A stretch of DNA of 64,000 nt, taken from Parcubacteria group bacterium Gr01-1014_8 (GTDB lineage: Bacteria; Patescibacteriota; Minisyncoccia; Phycocordibacterales; UBA2100). Position 1 is the first letter of the stretch; the number at the start of each line of letters is the position of its first letter. The DNA lies in NCBI GenBank assembly GCA_007376385.1, contig VMGC01000004.1, positions 32,001 through 96,000 on the forward strand. The letters are read 5' to 3'. A model generated the notes under the pieces. That model ran no database searches and was not told the origin of the DNA. It worked only from the letters and a program-made list of their open reading frames with translations. Below, piece by piece: positions 10,118-60,599 of this stretch. The position numbers and the translations under genes were made by a program.

Positions 10118-10145
10118 TTGAGACGTTGAAATACTGTGCTATTAT
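10118..10145 (+). promoter_or_regulatory. Candidate sigma70-like promoter (TTGAGA - 16 nt - TATTAT) for the atpE-atpC genes
   Basis: -35 TTGAGA at 10118-10123 and -10 TATTAT at 10140-10145. A GC hairpin CCGCGGC-tt-GCCGCGG lies at about 10236-10251 in the leader. Confidence 0.25.
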
Positions 10146-10282
10146 GCCGGCATTCGCATTTTATTGGCGGCGTAGAGCGAGGAAGGGAAAAGCATTCATT
10201 TTCATTTCCGAGCCGATGAGCCAAGATAGGATCGAATACCCCGCGGCTTGCCGCGGCATGAGTATCCTTTATTAATTACTAG

Positions 10283-10525
<243 letters not shown>

Positions 10526-10561
10526 ATCGGCGCACCATAGCGCCGAACGCTTTTTTGGCTC

Positions 10562-11011
10562 ATGTCTGAATTATTCGCAGCTTTTGGCATTAACTGGAAA
10601 CTCCTCTTGATCCAGGCGTTCAATTTCGGCATTTTGCTATTGGTGTTGTGGAAATACCTCTATACGCCTGTTCTGCGAATAATCGATGAACGACGGCAAA
10701 AAATGGCAGAAGGTGTAAAAAACGCAGAAGAGGCCGAAAAAAAACTAGCGTCAGCAGAAAGCGAAGGAAAAGATATAGTATCGAACGCTTCTCGCGAAGC
10801 AGAAGGAATGGTCGTTGCGGCACGAACTCGGGCGGGAGAAAAAGAAGATGAAATTATCAAGGAGGCTGAAAGCAGAGCGGACGTCATACTTCGGGAGGCA
10901 GCCGCGAGGGCGGAAGAAGTGAACCGTCAAATGCTTGCGACAAGCGCTCGTGACATTGCAAAGGCGGCGGTACTCGCCGCGGAGAAAATACTTCGACAAA
11001 AAAACGCATGA
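10562..11011 (+). CDS. atpF: F0F1 ATP synthase subunit b
   Basis: N-terminal TM helix followed by a long charged helix (AEEAEKKLASAESEGK...). Confidence 0.85.
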   Translation: MSELFAAFGINWKLLLIQAFNFGILLLVLWKYLYTPVLRIIDERRQKMAEGVKNAEEAEKKLASAESEGKDIVSNASREAEGMVVAARTRAGEKEDEIIKEAESRADVILREAAARAEEVNRQMLATSARDIAKAAVLAAEKILRQKNA

Positions 11012-23290: not shown

Positions 23291-23310
23291 ACGCTACGTC
23301 GAGTTCAAAT

Positions 23311-27774: not shown

Positions 27775-27780
27775 CATGAA

Positions 27781-31353: not shown

Positions 31354-31784
31354 ATTCGCAGAATTATGTGCAGTGTAGCAGAATTTATAGAAGCACACAC
31401 TAGATTGCGGCATCAAAATCAACGCTATAATGGCAATCATGGTTGAACTAGAGCCGGAGCCAAGAGACCGAAGCAGCCTTTCTTGCTGGAAGGAAGAGTG
31501 CGGATAGTACCGATGCGATTGCTGATCAAGCGAGGATGATAACTTTCTTGAAAGGCCGAGCGGAACTTGATCAGAATGTCATTAACCGCCAAAAAGATAA
31601 AATTCAGAGATTGGAAGATAAGCAAATTGACCTTGAGCTAAAAATTAGAGAACTTGAGAGAAAAAATATTGATTAAGGGGTTGTCATTCGAAAATTAGAC
31701 GAAAAATTACGCCAGCTGCAACAATTCCCCCCGACGGCAAATCCTGAGAAATCGATATAATGTGGCGCGTTGCAAAGGGAATTT

Positions 31785-33002: not shown

Positions 33003-33060
33003 ATCAGCAATGTACTACGTATTCGTGAGAATGCGAGCATTTACAGTGTAGAATTTACCC

Positions 33061-33555
33061 ATGGAAGATAAAACAATTAATGCTTTGCGCTGGATTCTAG
33101 AAATTCTACATAGGAATGAAGTTGAATATCAGATCACAGGTGGTCTTGCGGCCAAAATATACGGATCTCCTAGGCCACTTAACGATATTGATATAGACCT
33201 ATCAGGAAAGTCGTTTCCAACGATAGTGCCTGAAATCTCAGAATATATAACATTTGGTCCCGCTCGTTTTAAAGATGGTAAATGGGATATGGATATGATC
33301 TCACTGAATTATCAGGGGCAGGAGATGGATTTAAGCGGTATAGACAATGATCCTCGCATCAGCAACAAGCCGAGAACAGAGTGGATCCCGTATCTCAGTG
33401 ATATTTCTAAAAAATTGAAACTTGATCATGAGGGAATGGACGTCTGGGTTATGCATCCTCGCGCATTGGCGGCATACAAGAAAGAACTCGACGGCGACCA
33501 CCAATCGATGGACATCGCAGCGGCAGAGAAATATGCCAGCGAACATGGATCGTAG
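33061..33555 (+). CDS. Nucleotidyltransferase-fold protein (minimal NTase, ANT/Lnu-like)
   Basis: GGLAAKIYGSPRPLNDIDIDL matches the hG[GS]...DhDh Pol-beta-type NTase motif. Confidence 0.55.
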   Translation: MEDKTINALRWILEILHRNEVEYQITGGLAAKIYGSPRPLNDIDIDLSGKSFPTIVPEISEYITFGPARFKDGKWDMDMISLNYQGQEMDLSGIDNDPRISNKPRTEWIPYLSDISKKLKLDHEGMDVWVMHPRALAAYKKELDGDHQSMDIAAAEKYASEHGS

Positions 33556-33560
33556 CACCT

Positions 33561-34472
33561 CTACGCTATGAGAAAAGAGCCAATGACCACAAGCAGGATC
33601 CCGGCGCTTTTTTGAATGACGGTTTCCTTCGTGAACACTTCTTCAAGATCGACTTTGAATTTCTGCTGCGCGAACATCGTGATCATAAGCAATATCAACG
33701 GATGGATGACTTTCATCGCAGCGACCTGAGTAACTGTCGCAAGAGTAAGCGCATGCAATGTGAAAAAGATATTCCCATAATCCGCCAGCTTCGCAAGGGA
33801 CGCCCCGCGTGCGTAGGAAAGAGCTCCCTGCAACTGTATACCCTTGCCGGCCCATGCAAAATGTATAGCAAGCATTACTGCGAGAAAGGCGCACATGTAC
33901 AGCATGCCACTCACCAGGAAAGACGCAGGAGAGAGCTCATACTGCTCGTAATAGCTCTTGAAAATATACCCCTCTGAACCGATGACGATCGCATCAAAAA
34001 TCAAGACACCGAGCATCATAAGTATGTATTTGGAATTTGAGAGTCTTTTTGACAGATCCTTGCGTGCAAAGAAGATCAACCCGCCGATAACCAACACTCC
34101 GACTCCGCCTATCTGCATCAACGTAAGCGACTCTTGCCGGAAAAAGATATCTATGGGCAGGAACACAAGGGGAAGAAGCGCGAACGTTACGCTGGCTGCC
34201 GTTATTTCAATGTACTTCAATATCCACGTATAGGAGATCGCTTGTATCGCATATACGAGTCCCCACCAAATTATCGGAAGAGAGAAGATTATCTCAGGCA
34301 CTGATCGGTAGATGAGAAATGCCACAACGATCGCAACACCAAGCACGATAATGTTCCGTATCAACGCGGCAACGAACGTGTCGAGCGTGCTTGAACCAAG
34401 CATCGCCGCTTTATCGATCGTTTCCTCAAGCGTGTTACAGAATATCGCGCCGAGGCTAAAGAGTTGCCACAT
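33561..34472 (-). CDS. DMT-superfamily (EamA-like) 10-TM transporter
   Basis: About 10 hydrophobic helices in two repeats of five. Confidence 0.55.
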   Translation of the reverse strand: MWQLFSLGAIFCNTLEETIDKAAMLGSSTLDTFVAALIRNIIVLGVAIVVAFLIYRSVPEIIFSLPIIWWGLVYAIQAISYTWILKYIEITAASVTFALLPLVFLPIDIFFRQESLTLMQIGGVGVLVIGGLIFFARKDLSKRLSNSKYILMMLGVLIFDAIVIGSEGYIFKSYYEQYELSPASFLVSGMLYMCAFLAVMLAIHFAWAGKGIQLQGALSYARGASLAKLADYGNIFFTLHALTLATVTQVAAMKVIHPLILLMITMFAQQKFKVDLEEVFTKETVIQKSAGILLVVIGSFLIA

Positions 34473-34475
34473 GGG

Positions 34476-35702
34476 CTATATCTTCGCGGGAAGCGGTTTG
34501 TAGTTGATGACCTTATGTGGCAAACCATTTTTTGCAAGTGTCTTCAAGAACGGCTCCGGGTCCAATTGTTCGACGTTCCATACACCTGCCCCTGTCCAAA
34601 AACCTTTCATGACCATCATGGCTGCAATTACTGGCGGTACGCCCGCCGTATATGAGACTGCTTGAGAACCGACTTCGCGGAAGCATTTTGCGTGGTCGCA
34701 GACGTTATAAATGTATTTAGTACTTTCTTTGCCATTTTTTACGCCGGTCACGATACAACCGATGACAGCCTTGCCGCTGTACCCGGTTGCTAGCGATGCC
34801 GGGTCCGGGAGAAGTGCTTTCAAGAATTGAATTGGCACGATAGGTCTCCCTTCAAACATTACAGGGTCAATCCGACTGATGCCAATCGACTCCATGACGC
34901 GAAGATGCGTGAGGTAATTCTCGCCAAATGTCATCCAGAATCGCATTCGTTCAACAGAAGGGAAATGTTTGACAAGAGATTCCATTTCTTCGTGGTAGAG
35001 AAGATAGCTCTCCCTCTTTCCAGCAACAGGATAGTTGAAGGTGAAGTGGGTGCTTTTTGGGTCCATGATCGGGGGGCTCTTTACCCACTTTCCTTTGTTC
35101 CAATGTTTAACCTCTTGCGTAACCTCGCGAATGTTGATTTCTGGATTAAAATTCGTTGCAAATGATTTGCCGTGGCTTCCAGCATTTGCGTCGAGAATAT
35201 CAACGTACTTTATCTTGTCGAAATATTTCTTTGCGATATATGCGATGAAGGCGTTCGTAACTCCAGGGTCGAAGCCAGCGCCAAGAACCGCCATGATGCC
35301 CTTTTTCTTGTAGCGCGCCTGGTATGCCCATTGCCAGCTGTATTCAAAGTGAGCCTCATCGATAGGTTCGTAGTTCGCGGTGTCTATATAGTGGACTCCC
35401 GTTTCGAGGCATGCATCCATGATGGAAAGATCTTGGTAGGGAAGGGCGAGGTTGATGACGACCTCGGGATCTACTTTACGAATGAGCGCCGCTACATCTT
35501 TAGCTTTGTCAGCGTCTACAACATGGGTCTCAATGTCCACCCCCCAGCGTTTTTTTACATTCTTCTGGATTGCGTTCGGCTTTGCTATCGAACGGCTGGC
35601 GAGGTGTATTTTTTTGAATACGTCTTTATTTATTGCGCACTTGTGTGCGGCGACACTTCCGACCCCTCCGGCTCCAATGATGAGTACAGTTCCTTTAGCC
35701 AT
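34476..35702 (-). CDS. Carboxynorspermidine dehydrogenase / saccharopine dehydrogenase family
   Basis: N-terminal Rossmann motif LIIGAGGVGSV and full-length CANSDH-like similarity. Start taken at MAKGTVLIIGAGG. Confidence 0.85.
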   Translation of the reverse strand: MAKGTVLIIGAGGVGSVAAHKCAINKDVFKKIHLASRSIAKPNAIQKNVKKRWGVDIETHVVDADKAKDVAALIRKVDPEVVINLALPYQDLSIMDACLETGVHYIDTANYEPIDEAHFEYSWQWAYQARYKKKGIMAVLGAGFDPGVTNAFIAYIAKKYFDKIKYVDILDANAGSHGKSFATNFNPEINIREVTQEVKHWNKGKWVKSPPIMDPKSTHFTFNYPVAGKRESYLLYHEEMESLVKHFPSVERMRFWMTFGENYLTHLRVMESIGISRIDPVMFEGRPIVPIQFLKALLPDPASLATGYSGKAVIGCIVTGVKNGKESTKYIYNVCDHAKCFREVGSQAVSYTAGVPPVIAAMMVMKGFWTGAGVWNVEQLDPEPFLKTLAKNGLPHKVINYKPLPAKI

Positions 35703-35759
35703 GGTTTCAATTTTATTGTATAGCCGGATGATAGGAGCGATAGGGGACAGCGTCAAGCA

Positions 35760-37595
35760 TCAGAAATTTCCCCACGCTGCCGGATGCCATGGTACTTTCG
35801 TAGAAATTTTTTCGGTCTTTTGCCGAAAGCCGTCATCCTTCATCAATTCTCGAATCGAAGGAAGAGTCTTGGGAGCGTTAGGCAATTTTTCTAGTACATA
35901 TACTTGCACAGGCGTACCAGAGGCAGTCATTTTTTTACGCAAAATAACATTCAGTATCTTTATGCGAGGAGCAATACCGCCTTCGTTGGGTTCTGAAAAT
36001 ATGGATTCGAGAAGCTCTAGTACGGAGGGGTAGACATAACGCGCCTCTATGAATATCTGCCCGTTTGTCGCAAGCCGTTCATAGAGTTCTCTCAAGACTC
36101 TGTCGTATAACGATTGAAATGCAGCTTTGTTTGCTATCTTCTCTTTCATTGCTCCGATCGGCCTGAAAAAAACGGTATCTAAAACAAATCCCCGAGATAT
36201 ATGGTCGTCGATTCTCGCAAGTAGGTTCTTGAGGCTTCCTCCTCTGCCCCGACGGAGAACATCCCCAGGGACAAATTCCAGTCCTGGACGGTGAGTCTGG
36301 GCGACGGCATTGGCATGAGGAGTATCACTTGGATCGATTGCTGTGGCCGCGATCATCGCGTCTTCACCTGCTTCAAATCCTAAATTTCCCTGGCCGAATA
36401 CATCTACGAAGAGGACTTTCTGTTTATTTCCATGTCGCTTTGCAATTCGTTCTTGGATACGTTGCGGAGACGAAAGCCCCCAGAAGGAGAGTTTATCAAC
36501 GCTCTCTTGCGAATTTATCTGTGTTGACCTTTTTACCTCATCTTCAATGTCGTCGGGGCTTCTCGCAAAATACGGAATATTACCCGCGTATGCATCCCAG
36601 TTTTTTTCTTTTAGCTTCTGTGCATCATGCATGTCGTATTTCAAGCTTTCTAACCCGCGGCGCATAACACCTTTTTTTAGGATTTTAAATTTGCGCACAG
36701 GTTTGGTGCGAAGTTTTGCCGTCTCTGAAATATAGTTCTCGTCCACTTGAGAATCTCCTGCTCGGTCGACATATATCTGCCGTTTGTAATAAGGTCTCAC
36801 AGTTTTTATGCTTATCAAATGACCGCCAACAATGGGCGCGTTTGACCCGAGTCTTTCGTCAAGACTAGTCTGGAGAGCGAAAATCTTTTCGGCTTGATTT
36901 TTGATGTTGCCGTTAGGTAACCGTGCGATATCGGCCGTTTTCATTCGAAGGATATAATCTTCATCTGTGAGAACCAAGCCTTCATTGCCTGATGGGAGAA
37001 GTGATTGGTCGGGAGCGAGTACATCGGTCCTACTCAAGTAATCAATGTCTAGTTTCCGAAGACGTTCAACCTCGGCAATTCCGGTGCCGGTTGTTCCATA
37101 ATACGTCGTAAAACCTTTGGTTTTTCCTACCGCGATCCGACTCATTATCGCCGCCAACGTTGTCGAAGCGCTGATTATTGAGTTAAACGAAGGCTCCGAA
37201 AATATCGTTGTATAGAGATCCTTCCCGATACCTTTCTGCTGGTGTTCTTTGCCCACGATAATGTCACGAAGAATCGCGACGGAGGCGTCGCTTGCGTCGC
37301 GCTCGATGCAACAAAATCCGAGTACGCGAGAATCGGAAGTTTTAATGAAAACCTTATCAACGCTCTCGAATGTTATCTGCAATTGTCGCTCAAATTCCGC
37401 TTCATCACGATCGTATGCCTCCTTAATGAGGGGCCAAAACAGATCCTTAAGTTGGACAATGTTCTCGTTCCACATCTCTTTGTCTTTAACGGTAAGGACG
37501 AGACTAGCACTTGAGATATCCATCGAGGCGCCTTTGAAATTCTCAAGCTTTAGTTTGAGCTCATTTGGACAATCACTCCCGATATCCCGTATCAT
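35760..37595 (-). CDS. Multidomain protein: N-terminal GNAT acetyltransferase domain fused to uncharacterised middle region and C-terminal Rossmann-like (GxGxxG) domain
   Basis: GNAT motif A (ILRDIIVGKEHQQKGIGKDLY). C-terminal KVLFVDVFGQGNLGFEAGED resembles a dinucleotide/SAM-binding motif. Confidence 0.6.
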   Translation of the reverse strand: MIRDIGSDCPNELKLKLENFKGASMDISSASLVLTVKDKEMWNENIVQLKDLFWPLIKEAYDRDEAEFERQLQITFESVDKVFIKTSDSRVLGFCCIERDASDASVAILRDIIVGKEHQQKGIGKDLYTTIFSEPSFNSIISASTTLAAIMSRIAVGKTKGFTTYYGTTGTGIAEVERLRKLDIDYLSRTDVLAPDQSLLPSGNEGLVLTDEDYILRMKTADIARLPNGNIKNQAEKIFALQTSLDERLGSNAPIVGGHLISIKTVRPYYKRQIYVDRAGDSQVDENYISETAKLRTKPVRKFKILKKGVMRRGLESLKYDMHDAQKLKEKNWDAYAGNIPYFARSPDDIEDEVKRSTQINSQESVDKLSFWGLSSPQRIQERIAKRHGNKQKVLFVDVFGQGNLGFEAGEDAMIAATAIDPSDTPHANAVAQTHRPGLEFVPGDVLRRGRGGSLKNLLARIDDHISRGFVLDTVFFRPIGAMKEKIANKAAFQSLYDRVLRELYERLATNGQIFIEARYVYPSVLELLESIFSEPNEGGIAPRIKILNVILRKKMTASGTPVQVYVLEKLPNAPKTLPSIRELMKDDGFRQKTEKISTKVPWHPAAWGNF

Positions 37596-37607
37596 GATAG
37601 AAGTCTA

Positions 37608-38036
37608 TTAGCCTTCAAAAAGTAGAATAATTCCAATAGCGGAAAACAGAAAACCAACAGCCTTCGTGATAGACAACGGCTCTTTTAGAAAAATGATTCC
37701 AACAAACGCGACTATCGCAATTGCGACCACTTCCGTCAGAATGCCAGCGACGCTCAGTTGTGCGCCACGGCTATACATAAAGAAAATAGCGAGATCTGCA
37801 ATAGCTATAGAAGCACCTGCAAATAGGGCGGCACCGATGCCATAACGAGTGTACGTTAGATGTCCGTCGTATAAACGATAGAAAAATAAAAGGCAAAGGC
37901 TTACAGCCAGCGCCGACGACGTCATAATAATCACCGCAAGGAGAGGAGAGATTTTTTCGCCGGTCAATTTAGCACCGATGGCGTATCCAGCGGTACCCAG
38001 TGTGTAGAGCACGGCGAATATTTTCCACGACTGCAT
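37608..38036 (-). CDS. Small 4-TM EamA/SMR-like transporter
   Basis: About 140-aa hydrophobic protein with four predicted helices. Start taken at the internal ATG (MQSWKIF). Confidence 0.5.
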   Translation of the reverse strand: MQSWKIFAVLYTLGTAGYAIGAKLTGEKISPLLAVIIMTSSALAVSLCLLFFYRLYDGHLTYTRYGIGAALFAGASIAIADLAIFFMYSRGAQLSVAGILTEVVAIAIVAFVGIIFLKEPLSITKAVGFLFSAIGIILLFEG

Positions 38037-38183
38037 CGCTCCAGTATATACTTCTGTAGCCTTTCGGTTGTCCACACTGTTGACAAAAAGATGCATATTT
38101 TGAAAAACGTGGTATGGTATCGGTCTATCCGAATACTGCAAGAGCGCAACCCGCGCATACGGCATCGGTAAGAAACATCAGAG

Positions 38184-39599
38184 ATGAGCACGGAATCCGC
38201 AACGCCTAAAAAGCGTGCGAAAACAAAAAAGAAAAAGAAGAAAAACGGTTTTAAAAAATTCTGGCGCCTCGGAATGGAGGAGTTTAATACGGGGGGCTTT
38301 GATATTAGTTCCGACGGCGAACTTGTCGCGCGCGAGGGCAATTATCAATACAATATTTTCGATATTGTAAAGAAATACGGCTCTCCGACGGAAATATTCT
38401 TTCCAACCGTCGTTGAGAACCGTGTGCGTGACCTTATCGAGACATTCAACGCGTACATAAAAGTCCTCGGATACAAGGGGAAATTTCACTACCATTATCC
38501 AATGAAAGTGAACCAAAACAAGGAATTTGTCTTACCTGCGGTAGCCGAGGGCTCCAACCTTGATGTTGCATCTGCAAACGAGCTGTATCTGGTAAAGCGA
38601 ATGTTGGAACAGGAAAGGTTCCACAACAAGATGCGCGTCATATGCAATGGTCCGAAAACAGCGCGGTACATGGACCTCATAGAAGAGCTGCGGGGGAAAG
38701 GACTCACGGTCATTCCGATAATCGAGGATCCGGTGGAGCTCGAGCGGATGCAAAAATTCAAAGGTCCTGTCGGCATTCGCGTCGATTTGAACGTTAAAGT
38801 GAAAAGTCATTGGGATAAGAAATTCAACCGCTTCGGCTTTACTGAAGATGAGTTGCTCGACATAGGGAAAATACGAAATCTTTCGGTATTGCACTATCAC
38901 ATTTCAAGCCAAATAGAGCAGATGAACGGATTTATTGAGCCGCTCAAAAGGGCAATTCAACTATTTGCAAAAATGAAGGAAAAGAATCCTGGATTGGACA
39001 CGCTCGATATCGGCGGGGGAGCAGGAGTTCCGTACAACAAGCAAAAGAAATTTTATTCGGGAAAAAGCCTCATTCAAAAGATCGTTAAAACAGCAAAAAC
39101 GCAAGCTGATGCGCTTGGGATAAAGCACCCGAATCTCATCGCCGAGTGGGGGCGTTACGTTGTCGCACCAGCCCAGATGACAATTTACAGGGTCATCGCC
39201 GAAAAGAGCGTGCAAAATAAAGGAGGCAATAAATGGTACGTCGTTGACGGAAGTTTTATGAACGACCTCACTGATACGTGGGCGCTCAAACAGAAGTGGC
39301 ACGTGATACCGATAAACAACTTACATCATCCGAAGTTGGAGCGGGTCTGGTTTGCCGGCAGTTCCTGCGACAGTGATGACAAGTACACTCACGGCGGCGT
39401 TCATGTTTTAGTGCCTAAGTTGTCAGATATAGACGAGCTGTTTGTCGGTATCCTCGATACCGGTGCATACCAGGACTCGCTTGCCTCGCATCATTGTCTT
39501 CTTTCATCGCCTTTGAAACTTATGGCTGCAAACGGCGAGATAAAAGTTGTGCGCAAGAGGGAGACACCAGAAGAGGTTGGGCGTCAGTTCGGGTGGTAG
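38184..39599 (+). CDS. speA: Biosynthetic arginine decarboxylase-like PLP enzyme (fold type III, short SpeA-like)
   Basis: YPMKVNQ PLP-lysine motif and LDIGGGAGVPY glycine-rich motif. Unusual Lys-rich N-terminal tail (PKKRAKTKKKKKKNGFKKFW). Confidence 0.75.
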   Translation: MSTESATPKKRAKTKKKKKKNGFKKFWRLGMEEFNTGGFDISSDGELVAREGNYQYNIFDIVKKYGSPTEIFFPTVVENRVRDLIETFNAYIKVLGYKGKFHYHYPMKVNQNKEFVLPAVAEGSNLDVASANELYLVKRMLEQERFHNKMRVICNGPKTARYMDLIEELRGKGLTVIPIIEDPVELERMQKFKGPVGIRVDLNVKVKSHWDKKFNRFGFTEDELLDIGKIRNLSVLHYHISSQIEQMNGFIEPLKRAIQLFAKMKEKNPGLDTLDIGGGAGVPYNKQKKFYSGKSLIQKIVKTAKTQADALGIKHPNLIAEWGRYVVAPAQMTIYRVIAEKSVQNKGGNKWYVVDGSFMNDLTDTWALKQKWHVIPINNLHHPKLERVWFAGSSCDSDDKYTHGGVHVLVPKLSDIDELFVGILDTGAYQDSLASHHCLLSSPLKLMAANGEIKVVRKRETPEEVGRQFGW

Positions 39600-51349: not shown

Positions 51350-52054
51350 TTGCGACACGTAGCCTGGGCAAACGGCTGCCCTGGGGTCTCCCCCGGGTTC
51401 CGGTATAATTTCGAGGTGACGTATGCCATACGTGTCAGAGACGTTCTTTCAACATCTGAACGTCGGATATTTTCCCGCCTCTCTTCCCCGCGGAAGCTTC
51501 AGGATTTCTTAGAATCTATTCCGATCAATTTTGAGCAAAAAGGAGAAACCAACCACTCCCCCGAAAACGTCCTAAAAACCGGGGAAGCCCATTGTTTTGA
51601 AGCGGCTGTATTTGCCGCCGCGGTACTTGCCTACCATGGCCGGAAGCCTCTCCTCATGGATTTTGCGACTGCATATGACGATGAAGACCATACAGTTGCC
51701 CTTTTTCGAGAAAGCGGCCTCTGGGGCGCGATCAGTAAGACAAACCATGCAGTACTACGCTACCGAGATGCTGTTTATAGGACTCCGCGCGAACTCGCAC
51801 TGTCTTATTTCCACGAATACTATATGTGGGATGGCAGAAAGTCTTTGCGCGCTTTTTCTAAGCCGTTTGACGTATCTCGCTATGCGCCTGAAAAATGGAT
51901 AACGACGGAAACGAGCCTAGACTGGCTCATGGATAGAATTTCCAAGTCTCCCTATTATGCGATGGCGCCGGAAAAAGCTCTTAAAAAGCTTCGACCTGCC
52001 TCGCCTATCGAACTTCGTGCGCTGAAACTGACAGAATGGAAAAAGAAAGTCTAG
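51350..52054 (+). CDS. Hypothetical protein with possible transglutaminase-like Cys-His core
   Basis: GEAHCFEAAVFAAAVL ... H ... D arrangement resembles the papain/transglutaminase-like fold. N-terminal extent is uncertain. Confidence 0.35.
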   Translation: MRHVAWANGCPGVSPGFRYNFEVTYAIRVRDVLSTSERRIFSRLSSPRKLQDFLESIPINFEQKGETNHSPENVLKTGEAHCFEAAVFAAAVLAYHGRKPLLMDFATAYDDEDHTVALFRESGLWGAISKTNHAVLRYRDAVYRTPRELALSYFHEYYMWDGRKSLRAFSKPFDVSRYAPEKWITTETSLDWLMDRISKSPYYAMAPEKALKKLRPASPIELRALKLTEWKKKV

Positions 52055-53316
52055 AGATAATCCAATGGATTCAAATACCCTCCTACAGCTGAAACCGGAA
52101 TGGTTGCCTTCCCACATGGAGTATTCGTACCAAGCTGGCGTACCTGCACCGCGTCAGAAGCATATACGGTGAAGTGCAAGTGCGGGCCGGTCGCATATCC
52201 CGTATTGCCAGAGTACCCTATCGCCTGCCCGGTAGAAACGGATTGTCCTTGACTCACATTTATTTGCGACAGGTGCGCATAGAGCGTCGTAAGTCCGTTG
52301 CCATGTTTTATCAGCACCCATTTTCCATATGAGTAACAACCTCTTACAGCGTCAGAATTGCCAGTTCCGATAACGTCTCCCGAAAGAGCGGTTTTTACAG
52401 GCGTACCGATAGATGCACGAAAATCCACACCGTTGTGGCCTTTTCCGCTGTATGCTCCGCTGCGTGCGAAATCCGTATTTCCGAAGTTTTGCGTGATTGT
52501 CACGCTATCCAGGGGCCAGCGCAGGATTCCCTTCCCGGATGGTGGCAAAAGCTTCGGGTTCAGTGTGTATTGGAGTTTTGATTCCAGTTCGTTCAGAGAT
52601 TTCTCGAACGTTGCTTTGGCTGTACGTTTTGCTTCCAGAATTGCTTGGTAGTTTGCCTCTTGTGATTTTGTTTGCGCGAGAAGCGCGTTCTGCTCGCGTC
52701 TCGTCACGTCCAAGGATTCCTGTTGCGAGGCCAACGTCTCCTTCTGACTGACAAGTTGCTGACGTTTTTTGTCAGATTCATCACGCGATACAGTCAGTTC
52801 TTCCTTGGCTGCCATCATTGAATCAATATGTTCGTTCACGGCATCCTGGAACGAACGGTTGGTCTCCAAGTCGTCCCACAGAGCGGATATAGAGTCGCTC
52901 GTAAGCACTTGTTCAATAAGCGTCACGTTTTCTTGTTGATTCATGGACTGAATGGCCTGAGTCAAACCCTCTTCATCCCGATGTATCGCGGTCTCTTTAT
53001 CAACGATAGAACCGTCGAGCCGTTTGATCTCCAACTCTGTCGTAGCAATGTTTGCCTTAGTAACGTTTATCTTTGCGTTTAATTGTTTACGCTGAAGGTC
53101 AAGGATAGAGACTGTATTTTGCAGTGTTTGTTTCTTCGCACCGACTTCCTGCAGCTGCTTTTCAAAAGCGGCAATTTCTCTGTTGAGTTGTTGAATGTGC
53201 GAATTTTGCGAATTTATCTGGTTCTGCAATTGATCGGCCGTTTGAGCAGACAACACGAAAGGCGTACTGGCAAGTACCGCCAGTGCAAGCATGAAGATAC
53301 CGCCTCGTACGTGCAT
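52051..53316 (-). CDS. M23-family peptidoglycan metalloendopeptidase with N-terminal coiled coil (EnvC-like)
   Basis: Signal peptide and a long coiled coil. C-terminal M23 motifs HNGVDF and HLHFTVY. Confidence 0.8.
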   Translation of the reverse strand: MHVRGGIFMLALAVLASTPFVLSAQTADQLQNQINSQNSHIQQLNREIAAFEKQLQEVGAKKQTLQNTVSILDLQRKQLNAKINVTKANIATTELEIKRLDGSIVDKETAIHRDEEGLTQAIQSMNQQENVTLIEQVLTSDSISALWDDLETNRSFQDAVNEHIDSMMAAKEELTVSRDESDKKRQQLVSQKETLASQQESLDVTRREQNALLAQTKSQEANYQAILEAKRTAKATFEKSLNELESKLQYTLNPKLLPPSGKGILRWPLDSVTITQNFGNTDFARSGAYSGKGHNGVDFRASIGTPVKTALSGDVIGTGNSDAVRGCYSYGKWVLIKHGNGLTTLYAHLSQINVSQGQSVSTGQAIGYSGNTGYATGPHLHFTVYASDAVQVRQLGTNTPCGKATIPVSAVGGYLNPLDYL

Positions 53317-53318: not shown

Positions 53319-54650
53319 TTACGAAAGAGAAGCTATGGCTTTGCTGACGCGCCGCACTGTCTCATCCTTACCGAGGATCGAAGCAACAAGAAAAGGGTCC
53401 GGTGACTGTTCTTTGCCGGTAAGAGAGTATCGAAAAGGCCAAAGAACTGCTCCCCTTCCCTCTTTAGTGGCGTAGGGCCAAAGCGCATCTTTTATCGAGG
53501 ATACGTCGAATACATTCAACGCTTCAAGCAGAGTCTTGATATCCCTAAGATGCTCGGCAGTTTTTGCGGCGCTGATCTTCTTCATTGGAATGAGATGTGC
53601 CTCTACTGAGGGCTGAACGAAGAAATAGTCGTATTCGCCGTTCATTGATTGTTCGTGAATGTCGCTCCATACAGAAATTCGCTCGCGAACAAGCGGAATG
53701 ATCTTTTTTGCAATGGATTCGTTCCAGTTCAAATGCGTAAGTGAATTTTCAAGCCACGACAGAGCCTCTGATGCGAACGCACTATCTGATAGTTTCAACA
53801 TATATTCGCGATTGAACCATCGCAATTTCTCAACATCGAAGACTGCTCCGCTTTTGTGCAGATCTGATAGTTCGAATTCCTGTACCATCTCATCGAGCGA
53901 CAATACTTCCCTTCCTGACGGCGCAGTCCACCCCAGCGTCGCTAGGTAGTTCAAGAGCGCTTGGGGCAGATATCCCTTTTCCCTGTAATTCTTTACAGCA
54001 ACGTCGCCCTTTCGCTTGGATAATTTTGCCCGGTCGAGGCTCAGGTGCAGAGGATAATGGGCGTACATGGGTCTTTTCGCGCCGAGTGCTTCTTGAATGA
54101 GAATTTGACGCGGCGTATTAGATATATGGTCCTCCCCTCTGATAACGTGCGTAATTCCCATAGCCGCATCGTCAACCACGACGGCAAGATGATACAGCGG
54201 GTCGTCCTTGGAGCGAGCGATGACAAAGTCTTTAAGCTCCGTTGTGTCAAACGATATATCGCCGCGTATGACATCAGTAAACGTGATAGTTTTGCCGGAA
54301 TTCCGCAATCGAATAACGCTCACCATTGTACCGGGGTCCTTCTTACTCTCTTCGTCCGATACGTATGCTTTATCTTCATCAATAAGTTTTTCTATTTCAG
54401 CGCGATACACGTCGATCCTCTCGGATTGTCTATGAAATTCGTCCCATGAAAGCCCAAGCCACGTGAGCGAATCTTTGATGTCATCCTCGAATTCTCGGGT
54501 ACTTCGTTCTTTGTCCGTATCCTCTGAGCGAAAAATGATGGTGCCATTGTTTTTTCGCGCAAACAAATAATTCACGATGGCCATACGCGCAGTACCTACG
54601 TGGCAGAACCCGGTCGGGCTCGGCGGAAATCTAACCCGCACGGAATTCAT
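53319..54650 (-). CDS. gltX: Glutamyl-tRNA synthetase
   Basis: RFPPSPTGFCHVGTAR (HIGH-type) and KLSKRKG (KMSKS). Confidence 0.9.
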   Translation of the reverse strand: MNSVRVRFPPSPTGFCHVGTARMAIVNYLFARKNNGTIIFRSEDTDKERSTREFEDDIKDSLTWLGLSWDEFHRQSERIDVYRAEIEKLIDEDKAYVSDEESKKDPGTMVSVIRLRNSGKTITFTDVIRGDISFDTTELKDFVIARSKDDPLYHLAVVVDDAAMGITHVIRGEDHISNTPRQILIQEALGAKRPMYAHYPLHLSLDRAKLSKRKGDVAVKNYREKGYLPQALLNYLATLGWTAPSGREVLSLDEMVQEFELSDLHKSGAVFDVEKLRWFNREYMLKLSDSAFASEALSWLENSLTHLNWNESIAKKIIPLVRERISVWSDIHEQSMNGEYDYFFVQPSVEAHLIPMKKISAAKTAEHLRDIKTLLEALNVFDVSSIKDALWPYATKEGRGAVLWPFRYSLTGKEQSPDPFLVASILGKDETVRRVSKAIASLS

Positions 54651-54749: not shown

Positions 54750-55889
54750 TCATAGCGGCTCGTGGGAGAGCGCGGTCTCGAGAAGAATGGTCGCAAGCTT
54801 CCCTCCCGCATCGGGTCGTGCAAATTGTGCGGCCGCGGCGGACATCTTCGCCCGAGTCATCTCATCGTTCATTACTCTGTCTATTTCTGCAGCAAGGAGA
54901 TGCGGCGTCAAATTCTTTTGATCAACGACAACAGATGCTCCCGTTCTTGCATATGAGAACGCATTCTCCGTCTGATCATTTGAGATCTCCTTTGGGAGAG
55001 GAATAATGATGCTCGGCAATTTCCACGATGCTATTTCAAAAATGGTGCCGGACCCCGCTCGGGCAACAACGAGCGATGCAATTCCCGCTGTCATTCGCAG
55101 AGCAAGCGTGTTTAGCAGTCCGAATGTACGGTAGCGTTCTTTGTACGGCGAATCTTTGAGGATGACGTTAGCTATCCCATTCAATTCTTCAAGATTAGAT
55201 TTTCCGGTTTGGTGAACGACATTATATTTAGAGAGCAAGTCGGGGAGAGCGTTGAGTACGGCCTCATTTATTGCCTGTGCTCCCTGCGAGCCTCCCATGA
55301 TAAAGACTGTCGCTCGCGGCTGAAGTTTGAGAAATTCATATCCGCCCTCTTTCGTCGGATTCTCTATCTCTTTTCGTATCGGGTGTCCAATGAGAGCAAT
55401 GCGCGACTTCACTTTCGATGAATATTGCGCAACAGCTTCTGGATGAGCAACGGCGACCCATTTGGCGAATTTCGATGACCACAACGAGACTCGTCCGGGC
55501 TTTGCGTCTGCGTCGTATATGACAACCGGAATGTTTAAGGTGCGCGCTGCGTAGAGAGTCGGAAACGCCGCGTAACCGCCGGTAGAAAAGACGACATCAG
55601 GATAGATTGAAAATAATTGGAAAATTGATTTGATTATGCCGACGAACGTCTTGAAAACGTCAAACACGTTAAGAATGCTCGGATATGTGCGCAACTTTCC
55701 TGCAGGCGAAGGCCGATAGGAAATATCATGCTCGACAAGCGCTGCGTCATCAAACGCAGGCGGACCAATGTAGAAAAATTCAGGCGAAACAAGCCGCCGC
55801 GCATCCACGAGATCCTCAATGTGCTCCGCAACTGCAATGAGGGGATAAAAATGTCCGCCAGAGCCCCCTCCCGTGAAGACGATGCGCAT
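54750..55889 (-). CDS. murG: Undecaprenyl-PP-MurNAc-pentapeptide N-acetylglucosaminyltransferase
   Basis: N-terminal GGGSGGHFYP motif and C-terminal GT-B domain. Confidence 0.9.
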   Translation of the reverse strand: MRIVFTGGGSGGHFYPLIAVAEHIEDLVDARRLVSPEFFYIGPPAFDDAALVEHDISYRPSPAGKLRTYPSILNVFDVFKTFVGIIKSIFQLFSIYPDVVFSTGGYAAFPTLYAARTLNIPVVIYDADAKPGRVSLWSSKFAKWVAVAHPEAVAQYSSKVKSRIALIGHPIRKEIENPTKEGGYEFLKLQPRATVFIMGGSQGAQAINEAVLNALPDLLSKYNVVHQTGKSNLEELNGIANVILKDSPYKERYRTFGLLNTLALRMTAGIASLVVARAGSGTIFEIASWKLPSIIIPLPKEISNDQTENAFSYARTGASVVVDQKNLTPHLLAAEIDRVMNDEMTRAKMSAAAAQFARPDAGGKLATILLETALSHEPL

Positions 55890-55928: not shown

Positions 55929-57023
55929 TTATTTCTTTGGCCTATATCTGGATATACCGAGCAAAATGCCGGCACTGCCCAGAGAGACAAGCATGGCAGA
56001 ACCACCCTGACTTATAAACGTCAACGGAATCCCGGTTAACGGGGCAAGACCAAGCATTGAACCAATATTTATAAATGCCTCGCTGACGAAATATGTTGAA
56101 ATGCCGACGGCAGCAAGCGCTCCGAAATAATCAGGCGCACGAGCAGCTACCGCAAAACCGCGCAGGGCGAGTAGTAAAAATACTCCTATGATGGCGCTTC
56201 CGCCGATAAAACCGATCTCCTCGGCCGCAACAGCAAATATTGAATCCCCCATCGGTTCAGGCAGATACGTAAATTTCTGAACGCTCTGGCCAAATCCGCG
56301 TCCAAAGACGCCGCCCGAACCTATCGCAATGAGGGACTGTTTTATTTGATAGCCTTCCGCGAGAGGATTTTCAGCGGGATTAATGAATGTCGTAACCCTA
56401 TCGAGCATGTACGGTCTTAGGTATGCAAGGCCCCCGAGCATGATGACGCCGATTGCGCCGATAATCGCGATATCACGTAATCGTGCGCCTGCCGCTACAT
56501 ATACTGCAAGTGCAGCGATACAGATGACGCCGAGCGTGCCTATATCGGGCTGTATGACAAGCAATAGAGTCGGCGGCGCAAGTATCGCCGCAAACGCGGC
56601 AAGACCTCGCCATGAACCGCTCTCCCCTCTCAATGTCGAGAAGTAGGAAGCAACCATAAGAATAGTCGCAATTTTAAGCGCTTCCGAAGGTTGAAACGTG
56701 AAGCCGAGTATCTCAATCCACCGTCTCCCGCCGCCGTGCATAAAGCCGACGTGCGGCACGAAAACGAGTGCCGTCAGCAACAGCGCACATCCATACAGAT
56801 ATGGCGCCCATACCCGCCATCTGCGATATTCAATGAACGTGGTAGCCGCGAGCGCTGCGAGACCAAGACTCACCCCAAGAACTAAGTGGTTAAAAACGAC
56901 TGACGAAATGTGCGATGCTCCGCGTGCGAGAAGACCGAACGCCGCTGATATGAATACGCCAGCGCCGCCGACTACGAGTACAGCAATAATACTAGCGAGA
57001 GGTTTGTCGATATGTGCTTTCAT
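55929..57023 (-). CDS. ftsW: SEDS-family peptidoglycan glycosyltransferase (FtsW/RodA)
   Basis: 10-TM SEDS pattern. Start taken at the ATG overlapping the upstream gene's stop. Confidence 0.8.
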   Translation of the reverse strand: MKAHIDKPLASIIAVLVVGGAGVFISAAFGLLARGASHISSVVFNHLVLGVSLGLAALAATTFIEYRRWRVWAPYLYGCALLLTALVFVPHVGFMHGGGRRWIEILGFTFQPSEALKIATILMVASYFSTLRGESGSWRGLAAFAAILAPPTLLLVIQPDIGTLGVICIAALAVYVAAGARLRDIAIIGAIGVIMLGGLAYLRPYMLDRVTTFINPAENPLAEGYQIKQSLIAIGSGGVFGRGFGQSVQKFTYLPEPMGDSIFAVAAEEIGFIGGSAIIGVFLLLALRGFAVAARAPDYFGALAAVGISTYFVSEAFINIGSMLGLAPLTGIPLTFISQGGSAMLVSLGSAGILLGISRYRPKK

Positions 57024-57024: not shown

Positions 57025-58533
57025 TCATCCGAGTGATTTTCGATACTTTGCCGCTGCAAGAGCATCGTCAGCGAATTCACTATTACCTTTCCAGAGATGG
57101 TAGATGTTCGATGTGTGGTTTCGATGCAGGAAATGCCGCTGCTTCTCCGGGCCAAGATCTTTTTCCACATACTCTTCAATGAGGGAAATATCTTCCGCGA
57201 GTACATTAAATCGAGCATCTCCGCCCATAAGCAGTTCTAAGTTTTCCTTATTCAAAAACTTACCCGCGTGGACGAGGTCCTTTTTAAGATTTACATACAA
57301 CCGCTCTAATAAGTTCATGATGCCCATCTCACGAGCGATCTTTAGCGCTCTTCCCGTAGCTATCAGCTCTGGCGGAATACCAAGGGAATAGAATGCGCCG
57401 GTGAATTTAATGGCTCTCGGCAGTTGAATCCCGCCAACACCGCGTGAATATCCGAAGAGTCCGATGTGCTGCGCCCTCTCACGATGACTCGGCAGTGCAG
57501 ACGCTACATCGTTTATGACATCCGCAAGCGGCGTTATTGTGTCAGTAAAAAAACGAGCTGCCCGAGCATTGAACAGAGAGATTTTTTCGCTGTCCTTCTC
57601 GTTCACTTTTTCATACCTGTCGATATTCTTAGGGATTTCTTTGTTGAGTTTTCGTATGGCTTTTTTCACGTCATCCAGCGGGTAATCCGAGCGAAAGGCT
57701 GATTGGATCGTCAACGACTGGGCACCTGTATACTGCTCTATGGTTTCGTCAACATATTCCGGGTTTATCCCTCCTCTGAACGGTAAGCTGCCGCCGCCAA
57801 CCCACGGATACATGCGTATACCTCGTTTTTCTCCTAGCTCATGTGAATCTGCAATAAGTTTCTTGACTGCGAGCACGGTCGGCAAAAGCCCCGCGTTCAT
57901 TGCCGGATCGGAGCGCGCTATAAAGACGCGAAAGTACTCTGGGACAAGAGCATGAGTGTCTCGCAGATAATCGAGATAATCACTCATGATGCGGGGAGCC
58001 TCTTCCATGGTCTCAACGCTTTCAAATAGCGGTATAACGTCGAGAAATTTGAATTCGCTTGGCATATCAAAAATACTTTCTGCAGCTTCCGCTATTCTAT
58101 GGAATCGCTCCTGCATCTGTTTGAGTTGCTCTGCAGAAGTCGTCATGGGCAAGATGAGTTCAAATATCGGAGGAATATGGAAACCGTATTGCCTCGCGGC
58201 ATGTTCGGCCGCAAATACGTTGATAAGGCTCCGCGGAAGCCGGTGTGTTTTCTCGACCCAAACATTTGGAATGCGAAACGTGAGAAATATGTTCTTGCCA
58301 ATTTGATGTTTCTTGAAATAGTCAAAATAGTTTTGGTACAGCCGGTCAATAACCGCCTCATCAACCAACTTTCCTTCCCAATCCCACATGTACTCGTGCA
58401 CTCCGAGCTCGGAAAAACATCGGTAGCATTCATCAATTTCCTCACTTGACGCAACAAACCGCTTCCCCGTAAAGGGTGACGGGCATGCGTTATCAGGATG
58501 CTGGGTGGCCATCGTGACGGGGATAGTGCGCAT
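57025..58533 (-). CDS. Archaeal-type phosphoenolpyruvate carboxylase
   Basis: N-terminal IPVTMATQHPDN matches the atPEPC signature start (…MSTQHPDN). Length is about 500 aa. Confidence 0.75.
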   Translation of the reverse strand: MRTIPVTMATQHPDNACPSPFTGKRFVASSEEIDECYRCFSELGVHEYMWDWEGKLVDEAVIDRLYQNYFDYFKKHQIGKNIFLTFRIPNVWVEKTHRLPRSLINVFAAEHAARQYGFHIPPIFELILPMTTSAEQLKQMQERFHRIAEAAESIFDMPSEFKFLDVIPLFESVETMEEAPRIMSDYLDYLRDTHALVPEYFRVFIARSDPAMNAGLLPTVLAVKKLIADSHELGEKRGIRMYPWVGGGSLPFRGGINPEYVDETIEQYTGAQSLTIQSAFRSDYPLDDVKKAIRKLNKEIPKNIDRYEKVNEKDSEKISLFNARAARFFTDTITPLADVINDVASALPSHRERAQHIGLFGYSRGVGGIQLPRAIKFTGAFYSLGIPPELIATGRALKIAREMGIMNLLERLYVNLKKDLVHAGKFLNKENLELLMGGDARFNVLAEDISLIEEYVEKDLGPEKQRHFLHRNHTSNIYHLWKGNSEFADDALAAAKYRKSLG

Positions 58534-58542
58534 ACAGATCGT

Positions 58543-59604
58543 TTATAGTGCTGATAGCGCCAAAATGACCCCAAGGAACGCAAATACGATGGAGAGTACC
58601 CAGTAACGCATGGCAACCTTATAGCCCGGCCAACCGATGGCTTCAAAGTGATGATGGAGAGGCGCGACGCGGAATATCTTCTTTCCGAGAAAGTATTTCG
58701 AGGTAACTTGGAGCACATTTGACCCCACAGTAATAACAAGAAGCCCTCCTATAATGGGAAGAACGGCGACGCCGACTCCTTCGCCCAAGCTATCTGTCAT
58801 GAATACGACAACAGCGAGCGCGAGTGTGAGCGCCATTGTTCCCGTATCGCTCATATAAAAACGCGCAGGCGGGATGTTGAACCACAAAAATGCGAGAAGT
58901 CCCCCGACCACGGACGCCGTAAATGCTGCGAGGTCTATCTGATTTTGCGCAAAAGCGATGACCGAATACGCCGCAAACACAGACATAAAAACACCGCCCG
59001 AGAGTCCGTCAATGCCATCAATGACCCCCGAGGCAAACAGAGCGAGGGAAAGCAGAACGAAAAAAGGAATAACAAGCCAGCCGATCTCGAGTGGTGAAGA
59101 GAAAGGAATATTTATCGTGTGAACATCAAGTTTTGCAAAAAACCATACGCCTATCATGGTCGACATGATGAGTACGACAACAAGTCGCACATTGAGAGGC
59201 AGCCCATCGCCAGACGGGCGTATGACAAGCACATCGTCGATGAATCCGGCGATACCGCCTATAACGAGCGCCGCGAGAGGTATCCACGTTTGATTTCGAC
59301 TTAAGAAATTGAGACTCGTTGTCACCGAGTCTTGAAAAAGACCTGCGAGACCAGCAAGACCAAGTATGGTAATAACGACGCTCCCCCACACGACGAGCCC
59401 GCCCATGCGCGGCGCTCTCTGTTCGTGGGCTTCGTGAAGCCTATTGAACTCAGATGCGACATTGCCATCAAGACCATTTTTCCCGGGTTTTTTTTTCCAC
59501 ATCCTGTGCTTGTAGAGATAGTGTGTCAGGATAGGTGTAATTGCCATCCCAACAACGAAGGTGGCGGCAGCCGGAACAAGAATGCGTACCGTATCGGACA
59601 ACAT
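58543..59604 (-). CDS. mraY: Phospho-N-acetylmuramoyl-pentapeptide transferase
   Basis: 10-TM MraY pattern with conserved DD and HHH-type loops. Confidence 0.9.
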   Translation of the reverse strand: MLSDTVRILVPAAATFVVGMAITPILTHYLYKHRMWKKKPGKNGLDGNVASEFNRLHEAHEQRAPRMGGLVVWGSVVITILGLAGLAGLFQDSVTTSLNFLSRNQTWIPLAALVIGGIAGFIDDVLVIRPSGDGLPLNVRLVVVLIMSTMIGVWFFAKLDVHTINIPFSSPLEIGWLVIPFFVLLSLALFASGVIDGIDGLSGGVFMSVFAAYSVIAFAQNQIDLAAFTASVVGGLLAFLWFNIPPARFYMSDTGTMALTLALAVVVFMTDSLGEGVGVAVLPIIGGLLVITVGSNVLQVTSKYFLGKKIFRVAPLHHHFEAIGWPGYKVAMRYWVLSIVFAFLGVILALSAL

Positions 59605-59624: not shown

Positions 59625-60599
59625 CTACAAGCTTTGCGCGATGGCTTTCGTGGCCCGGTCAACGAGACTGCGCATATCCTTAAATCGACCATCGTAGGAT
59701 GAGCCAAGCACCACAACAACAACGGGGTGACCCGGTCCCACCTCAAACACGACCACAACATTACCGCCTGCCAGATCCGTGTACCCTGTCTTGCCGAGCA
59801 CCAGCCCAGGAATATCCGGCAGAGCGTCATTCGTGTTAATAGTGGCGCTCGGACTGCCATTGAGCGGCCCAAGATCAGCATTCGGGTCGCTTGTCCCGGA
59901 AAATAGGTCCTGATCCACGGCCACAGCATGAGCAAAAAGTGTTGCGACATCTCGTGCTGAACCCATAGCGCCTGGCTGTGTCGTACCGATGTCCAGTCCG
60001 CTTGGATTAGCAAAGTATGTTTTTGCGAGGCCAAGTTCCTGAGCAAGTTTGTTCATCCTCCATACGGCGGTATTAGTATCCGGAGCGTCTGGATATTTTG
60101 CACGAAGCAGCGGCTCAGCGGCCTCCGCCAGGGCCTCTGCGCCCGCGTTCGATGAGCGTATAAGTGTAAAATCCACGAGGTCGCGAACTCTCCAGCTATC
60201 GCCCGTGCCGAGTCCGCCGCCCTCTCCTTTTTCCACTGCGTCTCGCGATATCGTAACCGTATCAAATGGCTGCAAGACTTCGGAAACTACAAGCATGAGG
60301 GGCACTTTCGTCAAAGACGCAAGCGGTAGCTGTGTCTCAGCATTTTTTTCGAAAAGCACGGCACGTTCATGCATGTCGTATACAAGAGCCGCCTTGGCCT
60401 CGAGCGAAACATCGCGAAATAGAGCGTGTGGCATCGCAACAGCTGCAGTTTGGTCAATACGAGTCTCTGAGGATCCAATTGACTGCATACCAACCAATAT
60501 CACAATGGTAGCCGTCAAAAAAAGAGATATGCTGGCAAGCCATTTCTCACGAGCTATTTCCATCGTTTTGCGAATGAGCGTTTTCATTGAAAATTTCAT
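59625..60599 (-). CDS. D-alanyl-D-alanine carboxypeptidase (S11, PBP5/6-like)
   Basis: SxxK (SLTK), SxN (SSN) and KTG (GKTGYT) motifs in the correct order. Confidence 0.75.
   Translation of the reverse strand: MKFSMKTLIRKTMEIAREKWLASISLFLTATIVILVGMQSIGSSETRIDQTAAVAMPHALFRDVSLEAKAALVYDMHERAVLFEKNAETQLPLASLTKVPLMLVVSEVLQPFDTVTISRDAVEKGEGGGLGTGDSWRVRDLVDFTLIRSSNAGAEALAEAAEPLLRAKYPDAPDTNTAVWRMNKLAQELGLAKTYFANPSGLDIGTTQPGAMGSARDVATLFAHAVAVDQDLFSGTSDPNADLGPLNGSPSATINTNDALPDIPGLVLGKTGYTDLAGGNVVVVFEVGPGHPVVVVVLGSSYDGRFKDMRSLVDRATKAIAQSL

Follow-up and report, generated by a model that had tools for sequence, protein, structure and literature searches.

Why does a gene of central metabolism lie between mraY and ftsW, inside a cell-wall gene cluster, and has it taken the place of murD? 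These questions are raised by a locus in the window (the whole 64-kb stretch of DNA that was analysed, from a contig of Parcubacteria group bacterium Gr01-1014_8), which a preliminary description had read as mraY, archaeal-type phosphoenolpyruvate carboxylase (atPEPC), ftsW and murG on one strand. Profile matches to all four products bear out this order, and the four genes are part of a longer block on the minus strand, given here from upstream to downstream.

59625..60599, minus strand: S11 D-Ala-D-Ala carboxypeptidase (dac), upstream member of the block (PF00768)
58543..59604, minus strand: mraY, phospho-MurNAc-pentapeptide transferase, 353 aa (PF00953; best NCBIfam match TIGR00445)
58534..58542, minus strand: 9-nt spacer from the mraY stop (TAA) to the PEPC ATG, reading TAA ACGATCTGT ATG
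57025..58533, minus strand: PEPC (atPEPC), 502 aa (PF14010, TIGR02751)
55929..57023, minus strand: ftsW/rodA-family SEDS glycosyltransferase, 364 aa (PF01098, 284 bits; TIGR02614, 299 bits)
54750..55889, minus strand: murG, 379 aa (PF03033 and PF04101; best NCBIfam match TIGR01133)
53319-54650, minus strand: gltX, downstream member of the block (PF00749/PF19269)
52051-53316, minus strand: M23 peptidase, downstream member of the block (PF01551)

Genes for ScpB, ScpA, AspRS and TrpRS lie upstream of the S11 carboxypeptidase-mraY-PEPC stretch.

By its sequence, the product of the intervening gene is a full-length atPEPC and an ordinary member of this family. The open reading frame at 57025-58533 (minus strand) encodes 502 residues and starts with MRTIPVTMATQHPDN, the N-terminus and approximate length (about 500 aa) from which the archaeal-type identity had originally been proposed. 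The profile search suggested at that time gave a match of 430.5 bits to PF14010 (PEPcase_2; cutoff 25) over positions 1-493 of 493, and we obtained 462 bits with the NCBIfam equivalog TIGR02751 (PEPCase_arch; cutoff 146.05) over positions 1-506 of 506. Assignment to a Mur ligase family, the alternative outcome, did not occur: no Mur-ligase domain was detected in the 502-aa protein at E <= 0.01 with Pfam and NCBIfam profiles, and it does not qualify as a MurD by Mur_ligase_M (PF08245), Mur_ligase_C (PF02875) or TIGR01087. The sole solved relative is the atPEPC of Clostridium perfringens (PDB 3ODM), for which the HMMER match is significant (E = 3e-52) although the similarity is only moderate; the alignment covers residues 3-356 and 371-459, and the motifs align too. 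The same protein is named [quoted passage not shown] at NCBI. Its motifs, whose key residues are kept in 81-84 of 84 PEPC homologues, are as follows.

Residues 10-15: TQHPDN, with the His
Residues 168-171: PLFE, with the Glu
Residues 206-209: ARSD, with the Asp
Residues 246-255: GGGSLPFRGG, a Gly-rich loop with an Arg
Residues 372-375: PRAI, with an Arg
C-terminus: SLG, with the C-terminal Gly

End-to-end matches to both profiles and these catalytic motifs together confirm the archaeal-type identity. In profile, size, catalytic His/Glu/Asp/Arg motifs and C-terminal Gly, the window protein is like the known atPEPCs (PepcA of C. perfringens and the Sulfolobus and Methanothermobacter enzymes); the difference lies in its host, a CPR/Patescibacteria bacterium. 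The family does occur in some bacteria, and its monomers are 55-60 kDa in size (PMC8100219), a small subunit of about 500 residues with which the 502 residues found here agree. Similarity to the bacterial/plant-type enzymes (bpPEPC; PF00311), represented by the 883-aa Ppc of E. coli, is weak and local (14.7 bits with PF00311, below the cutoff), and the window protein is about 380 residues shorter than Ppc, yet the core catalytic residues align and the same reaction is predicted. TQHPDN corresponds to TAHPTE of Ppc and, in a direct alignment, E171, D209 and R253 stand opposite E506, D543 and R587, which we take to be the catalytic residues of the E. coli enzyme. Because of its family membership and intact motifs, the window PEPC would be expected to carboxylate PEP (PEP + HCO3- -> oxaloacetate + Pi). 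As an atPEPC it would further be predicted to form a homotetramer and to be inhibited competitively by aspartate. atPEPCs are devoid of the allosteric-effector residues of bpPEPC (PMC8100219).

The gene is tightly fitted between its neighbours. On the mraY side, the 9-nt junction is as originally described, whereas the overlap reported on the ftsW side does not hold: a single nucleotide separates the PEPC stop codon (TGA) from the ftsW ATG at 57023. Only the longest ftsW reading frame (start at 57218, 429 aa) overlaps PEPC, while the start at 57023 is the gene caller's choice and is conserved in relatives, with which the resulting 364-aa FtsW aligns from end to end at 80% identity. No obvious Shine-Dalgarno sequence precedes the PEPC ATG, and consensus scans revealed no promoter-like or terminator-like site in the mraY-PEPC or PEPC-ftsW junction; inside the genes, promoter-like matches are at background (12, versus 13.7 +/- 3.3 in shuffles) and terminator-like matches marginally above it (20, versus 13.3 +/- 3.2). 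PEPC thus shares the strand of the mraY-ftsW-murG unit, is separated from it by minimal spacers and has no signals at its junctions. Because the spacers are 9 and 1 nt long and hold no promoter- or terminator-like site, PEPC most likely rides on the transcript of this lipid II/SEDS operon (mraY-ftsW-murG) as a passenger, and co-regulation with wall synthesis, judged from the spacing, is plausible.

The arrangement is not an artefact of assembly, because it recurs in independent assemblies: the ENA contig (130,871 bp), the NCBI contig (135,206 bp) and the Logan assembly of SRR8863434. The source is a metagenome-assembled genome and the phylogeny of PEPC is at odds with that of the flanking genes, as described below, which is what one would see if a Peribacteria-like PEPC had been joined to a Kaiserbacteria contig during assembly or binning. 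However, the same junctions are found not only in these three assemblies but also in genomes from other samples (L002, from SRR29272358, L007 and L098), and the short spacers (9 nt and 1 nt) as well as the uniform GC3 speak against such a chimera, to which we attach a vanishingly small probability.

Has PEPC displaced murD? The expectation of a murD at this point comes from E. coli, where the dcw order is mraZ-rsmH-ftsL-ftsI-murE-murF-mraY-murD-ftsW-murG-murC-ddl-ftsQAZ, and it is not the order found in the relatives of this organism. Judged by MraY, the organism belongs among Ca. Kaiserbacteria: hundreds of related proteins are 68-79% identical to the window MraY, those with a named source come from Ca. 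Kaiserbacteria, and the closest of these named relatives are 70-77% identical. We compared three Kaiserbacteria relatives whose locus is devoid of PEPC, L087 (JACRFI010000015), L088 (CP066682.1, complete, 859 kb) and a JGI contig, with MraY proteins 71-79% identical to that of the window. All three have a ten-gene block, trpS-aspS-scpA-scpB-dac-mraY-ftsW-murG-gltX-M23, in which mraY abuts ftsW (3/3) with neither PEPC nor murD between them. The window, L002, L007 and L098 have the same block plus PEPC; the S11 carboxypeptidase gene holds the same position in L087, L088, L002 and L007, and gltX and the M23 peptidase gene are syntenic in L002, L087 and L088. Because mraY directly precedes ftsW in the relatives without PEPC, this comparison of gene orders tells us that PEPC is an insertion into a pre-existing mraY|ftsW junction and that murD was not displaced. 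murD is indeed missing from this locus, as first noted, but not in the sense of a vacated slot, since the relatives without PEPC have no murD there either.

Comparison with the canonical dcw cluster highlights both similarities and differences. The mraY, ftsW and murG genes share order and strand with it, and a segment mraZ-rsmH-(121-aa ORF, perhaps ftsL)-ftsI-murF, on the same contig about 60 kb from mraY and just outside the window on its left side, keeps its internal order; a grpE-dnaK-dnaJ region was also found on the contig outside the window. On the other hand, the cluster in this genome has been broken up into two or more segments some 60 kb from one another, neither of the two segments seen contains murD, murE or murC, mraY abuts ftsW in the Kaiserbacteria lineage, and the locus has gained a foreign metabolic gene. 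Evolution of the dcw cluster has been described as mainly gene loss and delocalization with "likely no gene gain", in a survey outside of which the CPR lay (PMC8871954). In the literature searched, we found no paper that deals with the atPEPCs of CPR or with the way their dcw genes are organised.

A search for murD elsewhere, which the preliminary description had called for, was negative over some 83 kb of contig sequence, where MurC and MurE were not found either; of the Mur ligases, murF is present, in the segment about 60 kb away. The 64-kb window itself holds no Mur ligase, either by tblastn with E. coli MurC/D/E/F (best E-value 0.35; 0.36 with MurD) or in a Pfam scan of its ORFs of at least 400 aa. 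The absence of murD from these 83 kb and the position of PEPC in murD's place in the E. coli order might suggest that PEPC replaces or compensates for MurD, the D-glutamate-adding ligase, or that the organism has lost murD altogether. However, the protein has no Mur_ligase domain, ATP-grasp or P-loop features and is a full-length PEPC with its catalytic motifs, the lack of murD in relatives without PEPC means that there was no slot to fill, and the retention of murF elsewhere on the contig indicates that the Mur pathway is intact but dispersed. Moreover, 83 kb is part of the genome only. We therefore regard a role of PEPC as a stand-in for MurD, or an outright loss of murD, as extremely unlikely.

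The insertion is restricted to one clade. Our survey covered the best 80 GTDB-representative genomes with a PEPC relative, together with contigs fetched for individual homologues, and among the loci examined only four closely related genomes have PEPC between mraY and ftsW: the window, L002 (PEPC 76% and MraY 83% identical to those of the window), L007 (83% and 80%, respectively) and L098 (PEPC 77% identical). Only L007 among the best 80 representative loci has this arrangement. The approximately 80 other PEPC loci have different neighbours, the commonest being an aspartate-aminotransferase-like gene, and the location within the mraY-ftsW-murG unit is by this comparison peculiar to the clade of the window. 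The next-closest PEPCs (60-63% identity) have unrelated neighbours, none of them adjoining mraY, and a metagenome scan for close PEPC relatives returned seven loci, none with mraY upstream.

Where did the gene come from? PEPC identity is 76-83% inside the clade and at most 63% outside it, and no genome among the best 80 representatives carries a Kaiserbacteria/Paceibacteria label apart from the clade's own. In a bootstrapped neighbour-joining (distance) tree of 85 sequences, with taxonomy labels as given by the submitters, the four-member clade is monophyletic (100/100 bootstraps) and sister to a group of three sequences, L003, L008 and L012 (96/100), two of which are labelled Peribacteria/Gracilibacteria; deeper nodes have no resolution. 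The PEPC gene of L003 adjoins a T9SS-type Por_Secre_tail gene, and L003 may not be CPR. This sister relationship links the clade to members of a Peribacteria/Gracilibacteria/Peregrinibacteria group in which PEPC is paired with an aspartate aminotransferase gene, a pair for which we found no name in the literature searched; these PEPCs belong to the same subfamily (44-60% identity to the window), whereas the window PEPC has no aminotransferase partner and its neighbours are wall-synthesis genes. Because the clade's PEPCs have Peribacteria/Gracilibacteria-labelled sequences as their sister group while the kin of MraY are Kaiserbacteria, the evidence points to horizontal acquisition of PEPC by the ancestor of a narrow Kaiserbacteria-like clade. 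The donor, for which a phylogeny had been proposed as the test, was most likely among Peribacteria/Gracilibacteria-like bacteria.

This acquisition appears to be old. GC3 is 0.505 in PEPC and 0.50-0.53 in its neighbours, so that there is no compositional anomaly of the kind left by recent transfer, a result that speaks neither for nor against ancient transfer. Among the PEPCs of the clade dN is 0.11-0.18, versus 0.13-0.19 for MraY and FtsW; dN alone was compared, as dS is saturated (undefined or >2). As GC3 matches that of the neighbours and dN that of MraY and FtsW, the gene is both old and under constraint; most simply, it was gained horizontally once, long ago, and has since been passed on vertically under purifying selection. 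Could PEPC nevertheless be a decaying or non-functional passenger, recently transferred, not yet purged and without a role? Two observations are what such a view would predict: sister lineages are devoid of PEPC, and no partner enzyme was seen in the window. Nevertheless, four diverged genomes all keep the 502-aa frame intact, its dN is the same as in the essential neighbours where synonymous sites are saturated, the catalytic motifs are all retained and the base composition is fully ameliorated, all of which makes a dead passenger very unlikely. The exact junction is retained in the four diverged genomes as well, and the position itself could be under selection.

A clue to the role of PEPC is found at other loci. 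A class I/II aminotransferase gene starts within 600 nt of PEPC in 30 of the 77 loci with enough downstream sequence, and in NCBIfam these enzymes are most similar to aspartate/aromatic transaminases, with scores below the equivalog cutoffs. Because an aminotransferase recurs beside PEPC in other CPR, the enzyme probably supplies oxaloacetate for aspartate and aspartate-derived compounds. A direct part in peptidoglycan assembly is improbable. In the 64-kb window we found neither an aspartate aminotransferase nor an aspartokinase, nor any other enzyme that consumes oxaloacetate. There is, nevertheless, a demand for aspartate-derived compounds nearby: the window holds, at 30301-39599, a carboxy(nor)spermidine synthase/decarboxylase cluster with agmatinase-, NspC-, carboxynorspermidine-synthase- and SpeA-like genes, and the carboxy(nor)spermidine pathway consumes aspartate semialdehyde. 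In the Kaiserbacteria genome L088, dapB-dapA-dapL-lysA adjoins the block.

Other genes and elements have also entered this block in relatives. In the JGI Kaiserbacteria contig, ftsW and murG are separated by an aminotransferase gene on the opposite strand, and a CMAS-like methyltransferase gene occupies the same junction in L098. L007 carries three copies of a terminal-inverted-repeat (TIR) element, at the dac|mraY, mraY|PEPC and PEPC|ftsW junctions, where elements of ~140 and ~310 nt have opened the junctions with PEPC retained. This element, considered as an insertion vehicle, is absent from the window. The junctions of the block seem generally permissive in the Kaiserbacteria group.

Is the position of PEPC then a matter of chance, or has it been selected so that PEPC is co-expressed with lipid II synthesis and feeds or balances wall precursors? 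Two routes can be envisaged. Oxaloacetate could lead via aspartate and aspartate semialdehyde to meso-DAP/lysine for the stem peptide, or the enzyme could manage the PEP pool on which MurA, which uses PEP, also draws. In line with such selection, the junctions are tight (9 nt and 1 nt), the placement is kept in four genomes with saturated synonymous sites, murE lies 2-4 kb from PEPC at the 13 loci of another PEPC subclade, from Peribacteria/Peregrinibacteria, and dapB-dapA-dapL-lysA is beside the same block in L088. However, the association is absent from ~80 other PEPC loci, sister Kaiserbacteria have no PEPC at the locus, the opened junctions of L007 show that spacing can be lost without loss of PEPC, and the proximity of murE in the other subclade is explicable by inherited synteny. 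Furthermore, the block takes unrelated insertions in relatives (aminotransferase, CMAS-like methyltransferase, TIR elements), which suggests permissive junctions rather than functional design. A selected position is on this evidence unlikely. A bolder version, in which the placement is adaptive, hard-wiring oxaloacetate/aspartate output to lipid II synthesis, and the mraY|ftsW|murG junctions are a recurrent capture site for metabolic genes, we judge to be somewhat more doubtful still. If true, it would mean that both CO2-dependent anaplerosis and the spending of the PEP pool are coupled to the supply of DAP/Lys stem-peptide precursors in an ultra-small symbiont, with PEPC, an aminotransferase and a CMAS-like methyltransferase as the captured, horizontally acquired genes.

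The explanation that we favour, and consider quite probable, is that of a horizontally acquired, functional atPEPC inserted in the mraY|ftsW junction, which travels as an operon passenger, supplies aspartate and replaced no murD. In this scenario, atPEPC would have been gained horizontally by the ancestor of a small group of Kaiserbacteria-like bacteria (Paceibacteria, CPR), and the gene would have landed in the existing mraY|ftsW junction of the lineage-specific dac-mraY-ftsW-murG-gltX-M23 block. That junction would never have held murD in the Kaiserbacteria-like lineage, and nothing would therefore have been replaced. The inserted gene belongs to the atPEPC family with its motifs conserved, is confined to one clade, groups in the tree with sequences from outside Kaiserbacteria and has been retained under constraint. 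Carried along on the lipid II/SEDS transcript and enzymatically active, it would make oxaloacetate, feeding aspartate and aspartate-derived compounds.

What does this finding mean? The mraY-PEPC-ftsW order is a gene-order curiosity, not the replacement of a cell-wall enzyme. It leaves knowledge of PEPC or of peptidoglycan synthesis unchanged, and the annotation of the protein as a PEPC was already known; what is new, and modest, is the gain of a foreign metabolic gene within a dcw sub-cluster. This provides a clean, datable case in which a gene of central metabolism was gained horizontally inside a highly conserved bacterial gene cluster. The main value of the locus is as a caution: the E. coli dcw order is the wrong null model for CPR bacteria, in which the cluster has come apart and ftsW directly follows mraY. 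Finally, atPEPC is widespread in Patescibacteria, usually with an aspartate-aminotransferase-like gene as its partner, and this pairing suggests that the biosynthetic route PEP -> oxaloacetate -> aspartate has been kept in some of the reduced genomes of this group.

A terminal-inverted-repeat element with ends ATGCCCGCACACTAAATTTG ... CAAAATTAGTGTACGGGTATG is present in three copies in L007, a related genome that, like the window, carries the archaeal-type PEPC gene between mraY and ftsW. The copies lie exactly at three successive junctions of the gene block trpS-aspS-scpA-scpB-dac-mraY-ftsW-murG-gltX-M23, and each of them ends on the following gene's start codon:

L007:1528-1669, dac|mraY junction
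L007:2733-2874, mraY|PEPC junction
L007:4380-4691, PEPC|ftsW junction

The third copy, of ~310 nt, contains an ORF that by eye appears to be GIY-YIG nuclease-like. We looked for this L007 element in the window, where it is absent. Foreign genes other than PEPC sit at this block's ftsW|murG junction in two relatives, L098 (which also has PEPC between mraY and ftsW) and a JGI contig from a Kaiserbacteria relative that has the block without PEPC:

L098:2817-4115, CMAS-like methyltransferase (432 aa)
JGI contig 9170-10777, opposite strand, Aminotran_1_2 protein (535 aa)

Repeated insertion seems to be tolerated at the junctions within this block.

Two stretches of the window's own contig, beyond the ends of the window, provide further context. 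One (L090:14284-19561), 3.5-9 kb beyond window position 1 and ~60 kb from mraY-PEPC-ftsW-murG, carries the dcw cluster's front half, which comprises mraZ, rsmH, a 121-aa ORF that is possibly ftsL, an ftsI-like PBP and a murF-like ligase; after these come a gene with a Lycopene_cyc domain and an FAD monooxygenase gene. On the other, ~9 kb upstream of the block, grpE and dnaK are separated by an inserted IS200-like Y1 transposase (L100:616-1338).

At the left end of the window, a large serine recombinase overlaps a tRNA gene with the end of its ORF, and this region may be an element integrated at the tRNA:

100-810, SHOCT-domain protein adjoining the recombinase
1070-2774, large serine recombinase (Resolvase, Recombinase and Zn-ribbon) together with the overlapped tRNA gene
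2702-2774, tRNA-Glu(CTC), on the strand opposite to the recombinase

A DsrE-like gene lies near these genes, just outside the window. Elsewhere in the window, a polyamine gene cluster occupies 30301-39599:

30301-31440, agmatinase-like
31785-33002, carboxynorspermidine decarboxylase-like (TIGR01047, 401 bits, slightly below the cutoff of 409)
34476-35756, carboxynorspermidine synthase-like
35760-37595, GNAT-domain protein (611 aa)
38184-39599, arginine decarboxylase-like

Two further gene pairs are found in the window:

20162-24921, AcrB-type RND transporter (1042 aa, PF00873, 608 bits) and adjoining HlyD-family membrane-fusion protein
26833-28674, ATP-dependent DNA ligase (313 aa), directly followed by a 297-aa protein with a LigD primase-polymerase domain (PF21686, 331 bits)

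The former resembles a tripartite-pump pair, and the host CPR genome is presumed to have no outer membrane; the latter is a split LigD-type end-joining module.

In other CPR genomes, PEPC has recurrent neighbors. Throughout one monophyletic PEPC subclade (L047, L049, L050, L052, L053, L056, L057, L058, L061, L062, L070, L077 and L078), a murE-like Mur ligase lies 2-4 kb from PEPC, with TauE, riboflavin kinase and/or aminotransferase genes in between, a proximity that is probably inherited synteny. This subclade is a second instance of PEPC near a peptidoglycan gene. Of 77 PEPC loci in genomes labeled Peribacteria, Gracilibacteria or Peregrinibacteria, 30 (including L005, L010, L013, L017-L019, L049, L052-L054, L057, L058, L062 and L070) have a class I/II aminotransferase that begins within 600 nt on the downstream side of PEPC. 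These aminotransferases are of two types (~390 aa and ~440 aa), their best NCBIfam matches are aspartate/aromatic transaminases, and PEPC plus aminotransferase looks like a conserved module in CPR.
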